Below, one piece after another: positions 2,884 through 14,448 of a DNA stretch of 64,000 bases; position 1 is the first letter of the stretch; every line of letters begins with the position of its first letter. Both the position numbers and the translations under genes were made by a program. The DNA lies in the IMG/VR virus record IMGVR_UViG_3300022930_000001, positions 1 through 64,000 of that record, one strand, 5' to 3'. The DNA comes from a virus. Under the pieces are notes generated by a model. It had not been told where the DNA came from. It searched no databases and was given only the letters and a program-made list of their open reading frames with translations.

Positions 2884-2962
2884 AATAGAACTATTATAAA
2901 AGAATCTGTGTAAGGGCGTGCTCAATTTAGTTGAGCCATCAGTATTTTATAATAGTTCTATT
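2884..2962. other. 18-bp inverted repeat enclosing a small structured core
   Basis: AATAGAACTATTATAAAA/TTTTATAATAGTTCTATT around a GCTCAA..TTGAGC hairpin. Confidence 0.6.
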
Positions 2963-3028
2963 ATTTTTGTTATTGTAGGCTTAGGATGGATTTATTAAAA
3001 GCAAATACTCATTTTTAAATTTTAAATT

Positions 3029-3430
3029 ATGTCAGTTATTTATAGAGGCTTAAAGCCTGAAAGAAATTTTAGTACTGCCGATTTCTATAGTAAAGGTATA
3101 ATACTAACACAATATTTACGTTCTAAAACAGATTGGAATCGTAAGCATGGTATAAAACAATGGACAAGATTTGTTTTTATGGGTAATGGATTACAAGGTG
3201 TAATACGTCATTGTGGTAATACTTGGGCAGTTGATTATCGTAAAGATTGGCATACAGGTGATCATTGTTTAACTACAGAATGTAAAACTTTAAAAGAAGC
3301 TAAATCAATACTTTATACTTGGTTTGCTTCTGAAGGATTTCATAAAGCAAAATGTTTAGATTGGAAAGATCAATTACTATTTTTTCCTAAAGGTTATCAA
3401 ATAAAATTTAATCCTATTATTTATAGATAA
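3029..3430 (+). CDS. hypothetical protein
   Basis: 133-aa ORF with aaattATG leader. Confidence 0.65.
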   Translation: MSVIYRGLKPERNFSTADFYSKGIILTQYLRSKTDWNRKHGIKQWTRFVFMGNGLQGVIRHCGNTWAVDYRKDWHTGDHCLTTECKTLKEAKSILYTWFASEGFHKAKCLDWKDQLLFFPKGYQIKFNPIIYR

Positions 3431-3994: not shown

Positions 3995-4111
3995 ATGGTA
4001 GAGTATCAAGGTAAAATGTGGGAAATAGTATCTATGGAATGTGGAGATTGTATCATACGTAATCCTAATACAGGTGAAGAAAAGCGTGTTGCTATAAGCA
4101 AATTACAGTAA
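3995..4111 (+). CDS. small hypothetical protein (38 aa)
   Basis: MVEYQGKMWEIVSMECGDCIIRNPNTGEEKRVAISKLQ with attATG leader. Confidence 0.45.
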   Translation: MVEYQGKMWEIVSMECGDCIIRNPNTGEEKRVAISKLQ

Positions 4112-4320
4112 ACCAAGCTCTGGAGTGAGCATTTGATATTATGAATAAAGCAATTAAGACTAGTACGGGTAGTGGAACAGATGGTGGTAGAATAATACCA
4201 ATCAAATAGTTTGTATGTTATTTAGAATAGTCTGAAAGCCTATAGACATTGGATTGTACGGTAGTTTTCCTATTCTATTTTTAATTTTATATGCTAAACT
4301 TCAACTAAAATAAACAAACT

Positions 4321-4554
4321 ATGAAAATATGGTTATATTCTGATAAAGATGAAAATCATGAGCTTCTATTAGAAGCCTCAACTAAAGAACAAGCCATTTT
4401 AAAAGTTAATAAAGCTTTAATAAAAACTTGGGGTAAAAGAGGCTCTAAAAAGTATATTAAAGAAATACAAGATAATCCTAATTTAATAAAATTTATTAGT
4501 AAAAAAGAATTAAGAAATTTAGAAAAGAATTACGAAGCTTTAAAAGCAGAATAG
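4321..4554 (+). CDS. hypothetical protein
   Basis: ORF with caactaaaa leader. Confidence 0.6.
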   Translation: MKIWLYSDKDENHELLLEASTKEQAILKVNKALIKTWGKRGSKKYIKEIQDNPNLIKFISKKELRNLEKNYEALKAE

Positions 4555-5091: not shown

Positions 5092-5365
5092 TATAAGTTA
5101 TTGAACTCTACACTAGTATCATTAAGTTGATAGTCTTCAGAATAACTATAGAAGTAATTACTTATGTATGCGAAATGAGGATTCAAGCCTGACAGCAATG
5201 TTTGGAGTTTATATTATTTGAGATAGCTTGATATACAATGAATAAGAGCGTGGGAGCATACTCCTTCTCATCATTAGACATCTCTAATTATTTAAGAATG
5301 TTATGCATACCAAGCATGGAATGCTTCAGAAGAACTGATAGAGCACTGTAAAAGCTCTACTAATG

Positions 5366-5452
5366 ACTCTCATGCTGAAATTTGGTAGACAGTCTAGACT
5401 TAAAATCTAGTGTTCTGTAAAGAACGTACGAGTTCGATTCTCGTTGGGAGTA
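5366..5452 (+). tRNA. tRNA-Leu(UAA)
   Basis: Acceptor ACTCTCA/TGGGAGT, anticodon arm CTAGA-CTTAAAA-TCTAG, variable arm GTTCT..AGAAC, T-arm ACGAG-TTCGATT-CTCGT. Confidence 0.92.
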
Positions 5453-6682: not shown

Positions 6683-7186
6683 ATGAAAGAACTTAATTTT
6701 AATACAAAATCTTGGCATGGTTTATTGTGGTCAAGCACATGGGGTACTAATCTACCTAATAATATATGTGGTTATTTTTGGTCATTAGTATTGGCTATAT
6801 TAATATGCCCGTTTGCAATATTTGGTCATATACTAAATATGATACCTAAAAGAACTTTAGATGTATCAGATGGTGAAAATAATTGTAAAGCATTCTGGTG
6901 GGTATTTACAATACCAATACTTGTCATTATGTCTTTACCTTGGTGGGAACATGTAAAAAATCCTACATTATTTAAAATGCTTTTATTCGGTGCATTAGAT
7001 TTTATAATATTTGTATTGTTTTTATTTATTATTACAGGTATAGGCTATTTATTTGAACAATTAAAATATAAGTATTCCGATTATTTAATTGTTAATACAC
7101 CTAAGAAAATTAAAAAATCTAATCCGCTTATTGAAGGATTCAAAGCCTTCAAAGGAAAATATTGTTCACAAATAAAATGGAATTAA
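6683..7186 (+). CDS. membrane protein (3 predicted TM segments)
   Basis: Hydrophobic segments; C-terminal K.KYC..I.W. Confidence 0.7.
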   Translation: MKELNFNTKSWHGLLWSSTWGTNLPNNICGYFWSLVLAILICPFAIFGHILNMIPKRTLDVSDGENNCKAFWWVFTIPILVIMSLPWWEHVKNPTLFKMLLFGALDFIIFVLFLFIITGIGYLFEQLKYKYSDYLIVNTPKKIKKSNPLIEGFKAFKGKYCSQIKWN

Positions 7187-12849: not shown

Positions 12850-13107
12850 ATGTCTAAGAAACATAAAAAATTTCATCAATTGCAAGTTAATATTCCTCTA
12901 AAGCCTAAAAAAGTAAAAGATCCAATACTAATACTAGAAGAAGAAATAGATTCTTTAATAGAAACATTAGATAATGATTTTGAACTAATAAAAGGTAAAA
13001 AAGTACCATTAACAGATAAGACAATTAATGATATTAAAAACAAATTGTCAATTAAACAAGACAAATTAGCTTCACTTTTAGAACAATCTAAAACTAATGC
13101 GAATTAA
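12850..13107 (+). CDS. hypothetical protein
   Basis: ORF in operon. Confidence 0.55.
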   Translation: MSKKHKKFHQLQVNIPLKPKKVKDPILILEEEIDSLIETLDNDFELIKGKKVPLTDKTINDIKNKLSIKQDKLASLLEQSKTNAN

Positions 13108-13348
13108 AGAATATTCAGGTCAACACCTGCAATCAGAAGAACCACTACAAGGTATGAGAATACCTGTACGTCCTCGTAAGGAAGAGGCCCTACCTCAATA
13201 TCTTGTATATGGTAAAGGTGCCTATTCTCTTGTAAAATCGGAACAGCGTAGGCAAATGCTTAAAGATCAAAGGCAGCGAGAAGATCTTCTAAAGCCTAAA
13301 AACAAAAGAGTGATTCAAATTGTAAAAGATTTGAATCTTTGGAAATAA
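13097..13348 (+). CDS. hypothetical basic protein
   Basis: ORF in operon. Confidence 0.6.
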   Translation: MRIKEYSGQHLQSEEPLQGMRIPVRPRKEEALPQYLVYGKGAYSLVKSEQRRQMLKDQRQREDLLKPKNKRVIQIVKDLNLWK

Positions 13349-13349
13349 T

Positions 13350-13533
13350 TTAATTAACAAATTGAGGATGTTGGCTTGGAAGCAGCCAAGATAACCTGAT
13401 ATGTTATCTGTACATTTAAAGAGTAGATAACGCCATAGCCAAGCAAAAGTATCCTTATCAGGTAGTCTAGGCGGTTTACTTAGAAATAAGTATAAATCTT
13501 TTGGCGTAATAGCACACTCTTTTTGTTAATTAA
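13350..13533 (+). ncRNA. 23S rRNA GTPase-associated-centre (H42-H44, uL11-binding) mimic RNA with two structured insertions
   Basis: Collinear blocks AGGATGTTGGCTTGGAAGCAGCCA / CATTTAAAGAGT / GCGTAATAGCACACT match 23S nt ~1054-1105; 12-bp closing stem TTAATTAACAAA/TTTGTTAATTAA. Confidence 0.8.
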
Positions 13534-13594
13534 TTTCTATTTAAACGTAATCAAATGACGTTCATACAGTTGCAAGGACTGTAATTTTAAAATT

Positions 13595-13973
13595 GGGGTC
13601 GTAAGGTTTTGACGGCTTGGAGTATGGTAATAGGGCAATCAGAACAATGACAGTGAGTTTAAAGCAAATATGTCAAAAACAAATGTAAACACTTCTAGTG
13701 TAACCGTAGGAATAAATGGTAATATAGATGCTTTCTTGGCATCAATCGCTCCAGTTGAAGAACTGATAGCTGCCTAATTTTCCAAAAGTCTTTCATTAAG
13801 ACTTAAAACAGAAATGAACTGGTTATTTATTCATTGATACAGTAAATTATAGCAATGTTTATAGTTTCTAGTTTACAACTAGATATTCCAAGACAGGGAA
13901 GATAAAGCAAGTCATGATTGTAACTCTCGTATTATGCACAGGTTCGGACGTGTCTTCGATGACACCGACTCCA
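13595..13973 (+). ncRNA. ssrA: tmRNA
   Basis: GGGGTCG/CGACTCC-A acceptor with G3:U wobble, T-arm GTGTC-TTCGAT-GACAC, tag frame 13718-13777 GNIDAFLASIAPVEELIAA*. Confidence 0.92.
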
Positions 13974-14007
13974 CTAACTAATTGATTATCAATTAATTAT
14001 AACAACT

Positions 14008-14448
14008 ATGTCAATATTTAAACGAGATAAGAATGCTAAAAAATTAGTACATTTTTATCCAATAACAATTAAAAGAATATTAGAATGTTTTTATTCTTCT
14101 AATAAATATGAATATCTTGGAATTACTTGGACATTATTTAGAGTAGGTACACAACCTAATAAGGATATGCAAGATTTCATAAAATTTGTAGATAGTCAAG
14201 CAAAACCTAAATGGTGTCCAAGATGGCTTTTGAATCTTTTACATTTATTTGGTAATGATAATTCTATTGTAAGATGCAGAAACTCAAAAATTAGTGATTT
14301 GCGCAATAAGCTATGTAAAGGAATAATGATTAGAGATATTAAGGAAAAATGGGGTACTTTAAGAGTTTATGGTTCTTTTACTGAAGAAATTGAAAAAGAA
14401 TTAAGAATACTAGAAGAAAAAATTAATCCATATCTAGAAGCTTATTAA
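14008..14448 (+). CDS. hypothetical phage protein (IKEKWGTLRVY motif)
   Basis: Common phage KEK[FW]G.LR.Y motif. Confidence 0.7.
   Translation: MSIFKRDKNAKKLVHFYPITIKRILECFYSSNKYEYLGITWTLFRVGTQPNKDMQDFIKFVDSQAKPKWCPRWLLNLLHLFGNDNSIVRCRNSKISDLRNKLCKGIMIRDIKEKWGTLRVYGSFTEEIEKELRILEEKINPYLEAY

Follow-up and report, generated by a model that had tools for sequence, protein, structure and literature searches.

Why would a phage keep a piece of the ribosome outside any ribosomal RNA (rRNA) gene, and what could such a piece do? The question is raised by a locus in a stretch of viral DNA of 64,000 nucleotides (positions 1 to 64,000 of IMG/VR record IMGVR_UViG_3300022930_000001, hereafter the window), which comes from an uncultured phage with a direct terminal repeat (DTR) genome of 118,695 bp. 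Positions 13350-13533 of the window, on the plus strand, are most likely a gene for a stable non-coding RNA of 184 bases that belongs to a phage family. Judged by its sequence, the element rebuilds the uL11-binding GTPase-associated centre (GAC) of 23S rRNA, i.e., the tip of helix 42 (H42), H43 and H44 (nt 1051-1108), as a self-closed module. Approximately 150 elements of the same design were found by a pattern scan and a covariance model, R1, in viral, metagenome and genome contigs as well as in cultured phages. An earlier reading of this DNA, here called the original prediction, had taken the element for a selected RNA and not for a scrap of rRNA. The results support this for the family, which is a selected, structured RNA and not decaying rRNA: many phage elements share the architecture, their helices covary, their loops are fixed and no rRNA flanks them.

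Match to 23S rRNA and Layout of the Element

In E. coli 23S rRNA (rrlH, taken by accession), nt 1054-1105 read AGGATGTTGGCTTAGAAGCAGCCA-T-CATTTAAAGAAA-GCGTAATAGCTCACT, exactly as the original prediction had given them. The three collinear blocks that it had recognized in the window (13365-13388, 13413-13424 and 13504-13518) are present and share 23/24, 10/12 and 14/15 bases with this sequence, or 47/51 in total. With up to three mismatches allowed, a pattern of 22 core bases is matched at one place in the window and in 0 of 100 shuffles, and the phage genome holds a single copy of the element. In the resulting position map, G1053 corresponds to 13364, A1077 to 13388, C1079-U1090 to 13413-13424 and G1091-C1106 to 13504-13519, while U1078 is replaced by a 24-nt insertion (insertion 1, 13389-13412).

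The match extends to the parts by which the ribosomal domain is folded. Positions 13373-13387 are the E. coli H43 hairpin (loop 1065-1073, stem G1062-C1064 / G1074-C1076) save for A1067G, and 13504-13513 are identical to E. coli 1091-1100, the H44 hairpin GC-GUAAUA-GC. The pairs of the three-helix junction are present as well, i.e., U13416/A13420 (1082:1086) and the A-U, U-A and G-C pairs at 13368-13370 / 13413-13415 (1057-1059 / 1079-1081). The position of H42 is taken in this member by P1, with three pairs, and by a stem that is AU-rich and unrelated in sequence (3 + 12 pairs). The 12-bp stem was correctly described by the original prediction as closing the element (13350-13361 / 13522-13533). 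Its inclusion of the uL10 site did not hold, as H42 is represented only by its last pairs, within a covarying closing stem of free sequence, and the H42 body is absent. The folding energy of the whole element beats that of 200 out of 200 shuffles (z -3.82). The features of the locus are as follows; MFE stands for minimum free energy, and the last line (transfer-messenger RNA, tmRNA) is context.

13350-13361, plus strand: outer closing stem, 5' strand, 12 bp, AU-rich; pairs with 13522-13533 (sequence, MFE and centroid folds)
13364-13367, plus strand: P1, top of H42 (23S 1053-1056); pairs G13364-C13519, A13365-U13518 and G13366-C13517 (rrlH alignment)
13368-13388, plus strand: H43 5' strand, 1065-1073 loop and upper 3' strand (23S 1057-1077); 20/21 bases as in E. 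coli, with G at 1067 (13378)
13389-13412, plus strand: insertion 1, hairpin AGAUAAC-CUGAUAU-GUUAUCU followed by GUA (sequence)
13413-13424, plus strand: H43 lower 3' strand (1079-1081), 1082-1086 turn and H44 5' strand GAGU (1087-1090) (rrlH alignment)
13425-13499, plus strand: insertion 2, 75 nt, extra domain at 1090/1091 (predicted fold)
13500-13503, plus strand: UUUG linker from the inserted helix to the top of H44 (sequence)
13504-13519, plus strand: H44 hairpin GCGUAAUAGC (1091-1100), A1101, C1102, A1103 and P1 3' strand (1104-1106) (rrlH alignment)
13522-13533, plus strand: outer closing stem, 3' strand (sequence, fold)
13595-13976, plus strand: tmRNA gene, outside the element (Rfam RF00023, full length, 43.3 bits, E 8e-16)

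A Family of Free-Standing Copies in Phages

When IMG/VR was scanned with a 16-base H43 pattern, at least 119 loci were obtained. Among the matches listed, 96 of the 119 viral loci contain an extended H43 motif, in 82 distinct versions besides that of the window, and a GCGUAAUAGC-like block follows 13-350 nt downstream in 76 of the 83 distinct versions (window included). The remainder of the 119 listed loci are chance or coding matches. An rRNA check of 20 viral loci (94,765 bases) at the Rfam gathering threshold gave 78 tRNAs and no large subunit (LSU) rRNA. LSU rRNA is likewise absent from the window and from the whole 118,695-bp genome, in line with the earlier statement that no other rRNA sequence flanks the element.

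The members share a common layout. A closing stem of arbitrary sequence (median 8 pairs, up to 30) is followed by GGNNGUUGGCUUAGAAGCAGCCAYCNUYUAARGAGU and by an inserted domain of 41-319 nt, after which come UUUG, GCGUAAYAGCACAC and the other strand of the closing stem. The insert at 1090/1091 has this length range in 62 elements, and there is one compact form without it. What marks the family is a helix inserted at 1090/1091 with UUUG behind it, and the window displays this at 13425-13514 (AGAU...AUCU UUUG GCGUAAUAGC A). Insertion 2 is therefore not private to this phage. A hairpin at 1077/1078, as in insertion 1, occurs in a minority of the members, and the sequences of these hairpins are unrelated to one another.

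The covariance model R1 was built from 17 training members, the window included, and has 149 positions and 23 pairs. Its score for the window (94.6 bits, E 1.2e-24, model positions 1-149) is partly high by construction, because the window is one of the 17 training sequences. Among cultured phages, Pseudomonas phage pf16, Cronobacter phage GAP32 and Aeromonas phage 4_4572 score 85.7, 83.5 and 82.9 bits, and true 23S rRNA scores 56 bits for E. coli and 60.8 bits for a Paenibacillus record. Of 100 viral loci, 83 have an R1 match at a cut-off of E <= 0.001, and in 70 the score is >=63 bits (the strong viral elements). A second set of 33 loci yields 30 matches, with every one of its 14 metagenome loci matched, and among 44 genome-contig loci 33 are matched, 34 times in all. 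Carriers among the latter include the isolate assemblies of Flintibacter muris DSM 110149 and Clostridiaceae bacterium strain 9. BLAST added Rak2-like jumbo phages of Erwinia, Serratia, Yersinia and Pectobacterium, Xanthomonas phage XacN1 and T4-like phages of Pseudomonas as cultured carriers, and in nearly all of the cultured carriers the region under the match is unannotated. Homologues are thus found in cultured and uncultured phages alike. Two kinds of BLAST matches were rejected as mimics: the record of Paenibacillus phage Pd_22F, which holds a complete 23S gene and rRNA operon, and many short records labelled as phages, which are rRNA fragments.

Some loci, numbered here by L, depart from the common layout. 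Compact free-standing GAC copies of ~60 nt without the H44 insertion are present in L076 (4355-4413) and L128 (about 1066-1130). The copy in L076 has U1101, as rRNA does. These compact copies may be the ancestral form or an independent capture. One contig of a metagenome-assembled genome (L175) carries two different elements in a single tRNA array, at 3996-4344 and 5204-5386 (77.3 and 95.3 bits). Furthermore, a sub-motif CACCCC-NNAANN-GGUAAGG is found near the 3' end of insertion 2 in L071, L067, L101, L023, L074, L056 and L038, which otherwise differ from each other. It resembles a small hairpin capped by a tetraloop, and the window has its GAAA-capped hairpin at the matching place.

Covariation and Fixed Positions

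Covariation was determined for 34 aligned members on a structure written from the known secondary structure of the GAC, with column shuffles as control. Paired cells make up 94.7% of the total, compared to 69.7% in shuffles, and the covariation score is 0.574 versus 0.143. None of 500 shuffles reaches the observed score, and when the 3' partners are slid by 1-3 columns the score is at most 0.133. All nine pairs of P1 and the closing stem show double changes. Pair 1057:1081 is AU in 30 members and CG in three, 1058:1080 is UA in 12, GC in eight and AU in seven, and the tertiary pair 1082:1086 is UA in 18, CG in 12 and AU in three. Besides these helices of the ribosomal domain, the base stem of insertion 2 covaries in 4/4 pairs (34 sequences). 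The upper pairs of H43 and H44 do not vary in the 34 members.

Two of the differences between the window and E. coli had been interpreted as compensatory. G1053:C1106 does belong to a stem with strong covariation. For 1090:1101 compensation is not established, because U1090:A1101 is constant (33/33) and GAGU at 1087-1090 is an ordinary state in bacteria; Paenibacillus 23S, for example, reads GAGTGCGTAATAGCTCAC / GAGUGCGUAAUAGCUCAC.

Since the viral set was chosen on H43, the conservation of H43 was determined in 29 elements fetched by their 3' half only, which removes this bias. In these, U1060, G1063, U1065, U1066, G1071, C1072 and A1077 are identical in 29/29, position 1061 is free (U 15, A 7, G 6, C 1) and position 1067 holds A in 24 elements and G in the other five. 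In the converse set, which consists of 62 elements fetched via H43 that had also passed a loose filter for the H44 block, G1091-U1094, A1098-C1100 and C1102 are found in 62/62 and A1101 in 61/62. The UUUG linker is nearly as constant in this set (U 60, U 60, U 59 and G 57 of 62), and each of its bases reaches >=90% in alignment A1. Among the fixed positions are some that we take to be tertiary contacts of the 58-nt domain, namely U1060-A1088, and G1071 and C1072 with the H44 stem.

Insertions of the Window Member

Both insertions are present in the element of the window, which also has G1067, a P1 of only three pairs and an outer stem that is long and AU-rich. Insertion 1 is the perfect hairpin AGAUAAC/CUGAUAU/GUUAUCU that the original prediction had described. 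The stems that it had proposed for insertion 2 were recovered in the fold: a base stem AGAU/AUCU (13425-13428 / 13496-13499), CGCC/GGCG (13431-13434 / 13470-13473) with a large loop, and the hairpin UACUUA-GAAA-UAAGUA at 13477-13492. The predicted fold of insertion 2 is a small three-way junction with one GAAA-capped hairpin. Taken alone, its fold energy is ordinary (z -0.61).

A pseudoknot between both insertions had also been suggested. The underlying 8-nt complementarity, between the loop of insertion 1 (ACCUGAUA, 13394-13401) and the large loop of insertion 2 (UAUCAGGU, 13456-13463), is real, but 3% of shuffles reach it (p about 0.03). A significant loop-loop match of this kind was found in none of the 13 other elements flagged by a script for insertion 1, two of which (L045 and L098) were mis-flagged. 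A kissing contact or pseudoknot is therefore possible but marginal, and it has no family support.

The motif AGATAAC is present at the start of both insertions (13389-13395 and 13425-13431), so that GUUAUCU (13403-13409) has two possible partners. In the unconstrained MFE fold, GUUAUCU pairs with the second copy of AGAUAAC, and the lower H43 stem would then open. The doubled motif could be the sign of an alternative conformer or the trace of a duplication. Two patterns specific for this variant gave no matches in viral contigs or metagenome contigs.

Genomic Neighbourhood

The element starts one base past the stop codon of an open reading frame (ORF) that lies upstream, and is followed on the same strand by the tmRNA gene, 61 nt 3' of it, and then by an ORF of 146 aa. 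The score of the tmRNA (43.3 bits) is below the gathering score of RF00023 (47), and ARAGORN does not call it. Its 3' end reads ...CUCCACUA and not CCA. A link between the element and tmRNA, as proposed in the original prediction, exists in this phage (13595-13976) but does not generalize, since among the 70 strong viral loci tmRNA is present in four and tRNAs in 48. The 146-aa ORF has 19 relatives in viral contigs with 38-50% identity, and neither the element nor the tmRNA is present in any of these 19 loci. Relatives of the upstream 83-aa ORF were not found. BLAST of 13097-14010 against cultured phages gave no matches, and a scan for promoters and terminators around the element gave nothing above chance. 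The DNA polymerase of the phage has less than 25% identity to that of any cultured phage, for which reason a Bacteroidota host is not confirmed.

In the family as a whole, the elements are closely associated with tRNA genes. A tRNA lies within 500 nt in 39 of the 70 strong viral elements, in all 39 cases on the same strand, and within 200 nt in 28 of the 70, often at a distance of 1-10 nt. The same holds for the genome contigs, where 17 of 30 elements have a tRNA within 500 nt, again always on the same strand. Two further loci have signs of tmRNA on the strand of the element: L188 contains a tmRNA-like gene (ARAGORN, 6751-7170) at 579 nt from the element, and L053 an 89-nt Rfam tmRNA match below threshold (4144-4232), just past the adjacent tRNA. 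In L083, a group I intron (2941-3164, Rfam 70.1 bits) is located in the same phage tRNA region as the element, outside the element.

A search of 1,727 ORFs neighbouring 97 elements for a conserved protein partner was negative: the largest family is confined to seven loci of related phages. The phage of the window does not encode uL11 or bL12 in its genome. Together, these results favour a ligand from the host. The contig of Flintibacter muris (L190) has a phage tail-fibre protein, DNA methyltransferases and a kinase/phosphatase-RNA ligase fusion as flanks. The latter is a 730-aa polynucleotide kinase/phosphatase-RNA ligase (PHROG 8238, E 3e-225; L190 2522-4711) encoded ~1.2 kb downstream of the element. 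Such a neighbour was found only in L190 and its relative L025, out of ~180 loci scanned in six frames.

Comparison with Known RNAs

The closest known structure is the GAC of bacterial 23S rRNA itself (E. coli nt 1051-1108, the 58-nt uL11/thiostrepton fragment), with which the window element shares 47/51 bases and the same helices, and the family the fixed 1065-1073 and 1093-1098 loops and the covarying 1082:1086 pair. In contrast to the ribosomal domain, the phage element is free-standing, is closed by a stem of arbitrary sequence and has a helix at 1090/1091, UUUG and A1101. The member in the window additionally carries G1067 and an inserted hairpin at 1077/1078, and is encoded by a phage beside tmRNA.

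Mimicry of rRNA is known from the leaders of ribosomal-protein mRNAs. These autoregulatory leaders (the L10 leader, and the L1-binding leader of the L11 operon) are likewise RNAs that imitate the rRNA site of a ribosomal protein off the ribosome. However, they are cis-acting 5' leaders, whereas the element differs very little from the rRNA site and has no ribosomal-protein gene after it. The leaders resemble rRNA only loosely, and no leader family in Rfam matches the element at E <= 10.

Phage tRNAs and tmRNAs share the genomic niche and the strand of the element, and probably its transcripts and processing. The fold of the element is different, and neither ARAGORN nor Rfam recognizes it as one of them. 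T4 rnaC and rnaD (species 1 and 2) occupy the same niche, being stable phage RNAs of a tRNA cluster that are annotated without an assigned function. They were rejected as members: with the filters of R1 turned off, rnaD gives no match and rnaC 2.5 bits over 22 nt (E 4.4). The best R1 match in the 8-kb T4 region, at 8.5 bits, lies inside segB.

By analogy, the logic proposed below would be that of 6S RNA (for RNA polymerase), CsrB-type sponges and the ToxI antitoxin RNA, where a structured RNA titrates a protein by imitating its nucleic-acid partner. To our knowledge, none of these imitates a functional centre of the ribosome. Rfam 15 contains no family that matches the element, even at E <= 10, and no description of such an RNA was found in the full-text literature, with supplements and subscription journals outside the search. 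In the main text of Weinberg et al. (2017; PMC5737381) the terms '23S', 'L11' and 'GTPase' are absent; the 224 motifs in its supplements could bear on novelty. Within the database and literature searched, a phage family of free-standing GAC copies was thus not found described, which agrees with the earlier remark that no such phage RNA was known.

Function of the Phage RNA

The favoured reading is that the RNA is a stable, trans-acting mimic of the uL11 site that is co-transcribed, processed, folded as a GAC and bound to host uL11 as a sponge. This chain of events as a whole is a tentative proposal, to which we give slightly less than even confidence. The RNA would be transcribed together with the neighbouring tRNA or tmRNA genes, and the enzymes that process tRNA and tmRNA would cut it out, with the closing stem marking its ends. 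It would fold like the ribosomal domain, in such a way that insertions 1 (1077/1078) and 2 (1090/1091) project away from the conserved face. Acting in trans and off the ribosome, the RNA could offer this face to its usual recognizers. As a first step it would bind host uL11 and function as a sponge. The occupancy of uL11 on ribosomes might then be lowered and uL11-dependent activation of RelA blunted, or the complex of uL11 and RNA might serve as bait. uL11 is favoured as the first partner because the whole of what is known as its binding domain is kept, and the H42 body, which is the uL10 site, is not.

Several points weigh against a uL11 sponge. The only sequencing run that holds the sequence of the element is a DNA run, and the discrete RNA and its ends are deduced. 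Binding of uL11, as the most likely first step, would follow from the properties of the 58-nt domain, yet in the phage RNA the 5' strand of H44 is interrupted by a helix and U1101 is changed to A, and together these could have altered the fold or the protein surface. A sponge would also have to compete for uL11 with tens of thousands of ribosomes. Position 1067 varies in the family. This variation argues against a ligand that needs A1067, and not against uL11. A G at this position would weaken the binding of thiostrepton and not that of uL11. Moreover, ARAGORN finds only two tRNA genes in the window, which makes the context of a tRNA array weak here. Finally, pattern scans and the relatives of neighbouring ORFs revealed no close relatives of the window variant, and its two insertions are therefore without comparative support of their own.

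A host defence or a rival bacterium could be the target instead. The free RNA might be a decoy or pseudo-substrate that holds or absorbs a host immune effector or a competitor toxin that modifies or cuts H43/H44. Ribosomes at work on phage mRNA would then be spared, much as phage tRNAs take the place of those cut by defence nucleases. We consider this unlikely, although it deserves serious attention. Toxins against the exact site exist: Tre23 ADP-ribosylates 23S rRNA within nt 1095-1098 of H44 and thereby impairs the GTPase activity of EF-G (PMC8661411). The near-invariant H44 loop of the family would suit such an attack, and the variable insertions could add contacts for different effectors. 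The elements also sit among phage tRNA genes, which have been proposed as counter-defence cargo. In the L190 prophage and its relative L025 an RNA-repair fusion is encoded ~1.2 kb downstream, but this neighbour is limited to these 2 of ~180 loci. We know of no anti-phage system that targets the GAC. The literature search gave only a broad cleavage of rRNA and tRNA by Retron-Kva2, with no GAC site named in the text available. In addition, a decoy for a catalytic enzyme must outcompete the abundant ribosomes unless it is bound much more tightly, and hosts ranging from Enterobacteria to Clostridia would need a very widespread effector.

It is improbable that the RNA is a bait or scaffold for another factor that recognizes the GAC, such as a translational GTPase, a RelA/SpoT-type enzyme, an rRNA methyltransferase or a phage protein, which it would hold away from its site or bring elsewhere, with or without uL11. 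Such a role would fit the conservation of both loops and of the cleft between them, and the large variable insertions (41-319 nt) could be a second binding platform. On the ribosome, however, factors also depend for their binding on the sarcin-ricin loop and the stalk proteins, and the element has neither. The ORFs around the 97 elements revealed no conserved phage protein, and the variation at 1067 touches a residue that contacts factors.

More doubtful still is a cis-acting module for the processing, stability or insulation of the tRNA/tmRNA transcript, whose likeness to the GAC would reflect its origin only. The tight adjacency to tRNAs on the same strand, often at 1-10 nt, would agree with this, and so would the long closing stems, which look like processing sites, and the position of the window element between the upstream stop codon, one base away, and the tmRNA 61 nt further on. 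Nevertheless, near-invariant GAC loops and a covarying 1082:1086 pair, shared by very different phages, are not what a processing module would require. Moreover, for 22 of the 70 viral elements the fetched locus contains no tRNA, and the copy in GAP32 has protein genes on both sides, none of the 14 features annotated in its 5-kb locus being an RNA gene.

Origin of the Family

Although GAP32 has an enterobacterial host, it has A1061 and GAGU at 1087-1090 where E. coli 23S has U1061 and GAAA. This difference from enterobacterial 23S indicates that the family was not copied by each phage from its own host. As far as the sequences tell, the family-specific change is that of U1101 to A, beside the inserted helix. 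A1101, UUUG and the helix at 1090/1091 are common to phages of very different hosts, which suggests a single origin followed by spread among phages.

That the elements are decaying scraps of host 23S, or rRNA pieces with a degenerate group I intron, is barely credible: there is clear homology to 23S (sub-threshold local LSU matches of Rfam on GAP32, 26.7 bits, and L053, 26.1 bits), and insertion 2 has conserved U...G boundaries as in group I introns, but every helix carries compensatory changes, phages whose hosts differ in their GAC share the signature of A1101, UUUG and inserted helix, and no rRNA flanks the element in the phage genome or in the 20 viral loci. A group I intron was rejected as the identity of insertion 2, as RF00028 has no match at E <= 10 in 13250-14050. 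Likewise, Intron_gpI matches the element neither in 20 loci at the gathering threshold nor in five members with inserts of 239-319 nt at E <= 0.1. In the window an intron is implausible in any case, because insert and linker together measure only 79 nt, much less than such an intron needs.

Significance

In its widest form, the proposal is that large phages of many hosts carry a stand-alone GAC as an RNA weapon, produced abundantly along with the phage tRNAs. The RNA would either remove or occupy uL11, against the RelA-dependent stringent response, or, as a tight pseudo-substrate, disarm undiscovered immune effectors directed at H43/H44. The inserted domains would be adaptive, and the element of the window, with G1067 and two insertions that may form a kissing contact, would be a specialized variant. 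We regard the arguments for and against this proposal as evenly balanced.

A free-standing, near-exact copy of a ribosomal functional centre that is kept by selection across phages was not found described. If such a copy binds uL11 or a factor directed at the GAC, it would give viruses a new handle on translation or on the stringent response. Alternatively, if the RNA parries an attack on the ribosome by the host, a new class of such attacks would be revealed. The reading is directly testable, because cultured phages (pf16, GAP32 and Aeromonas phage 4_4572) and isolate assemblies (Flintibacter muris) carry the element. For RNA structural biology, the family would be useful as a set of natural variants of a well-studied tertiary fold that look as if they had been engineered, with helices grafted at two defined points.

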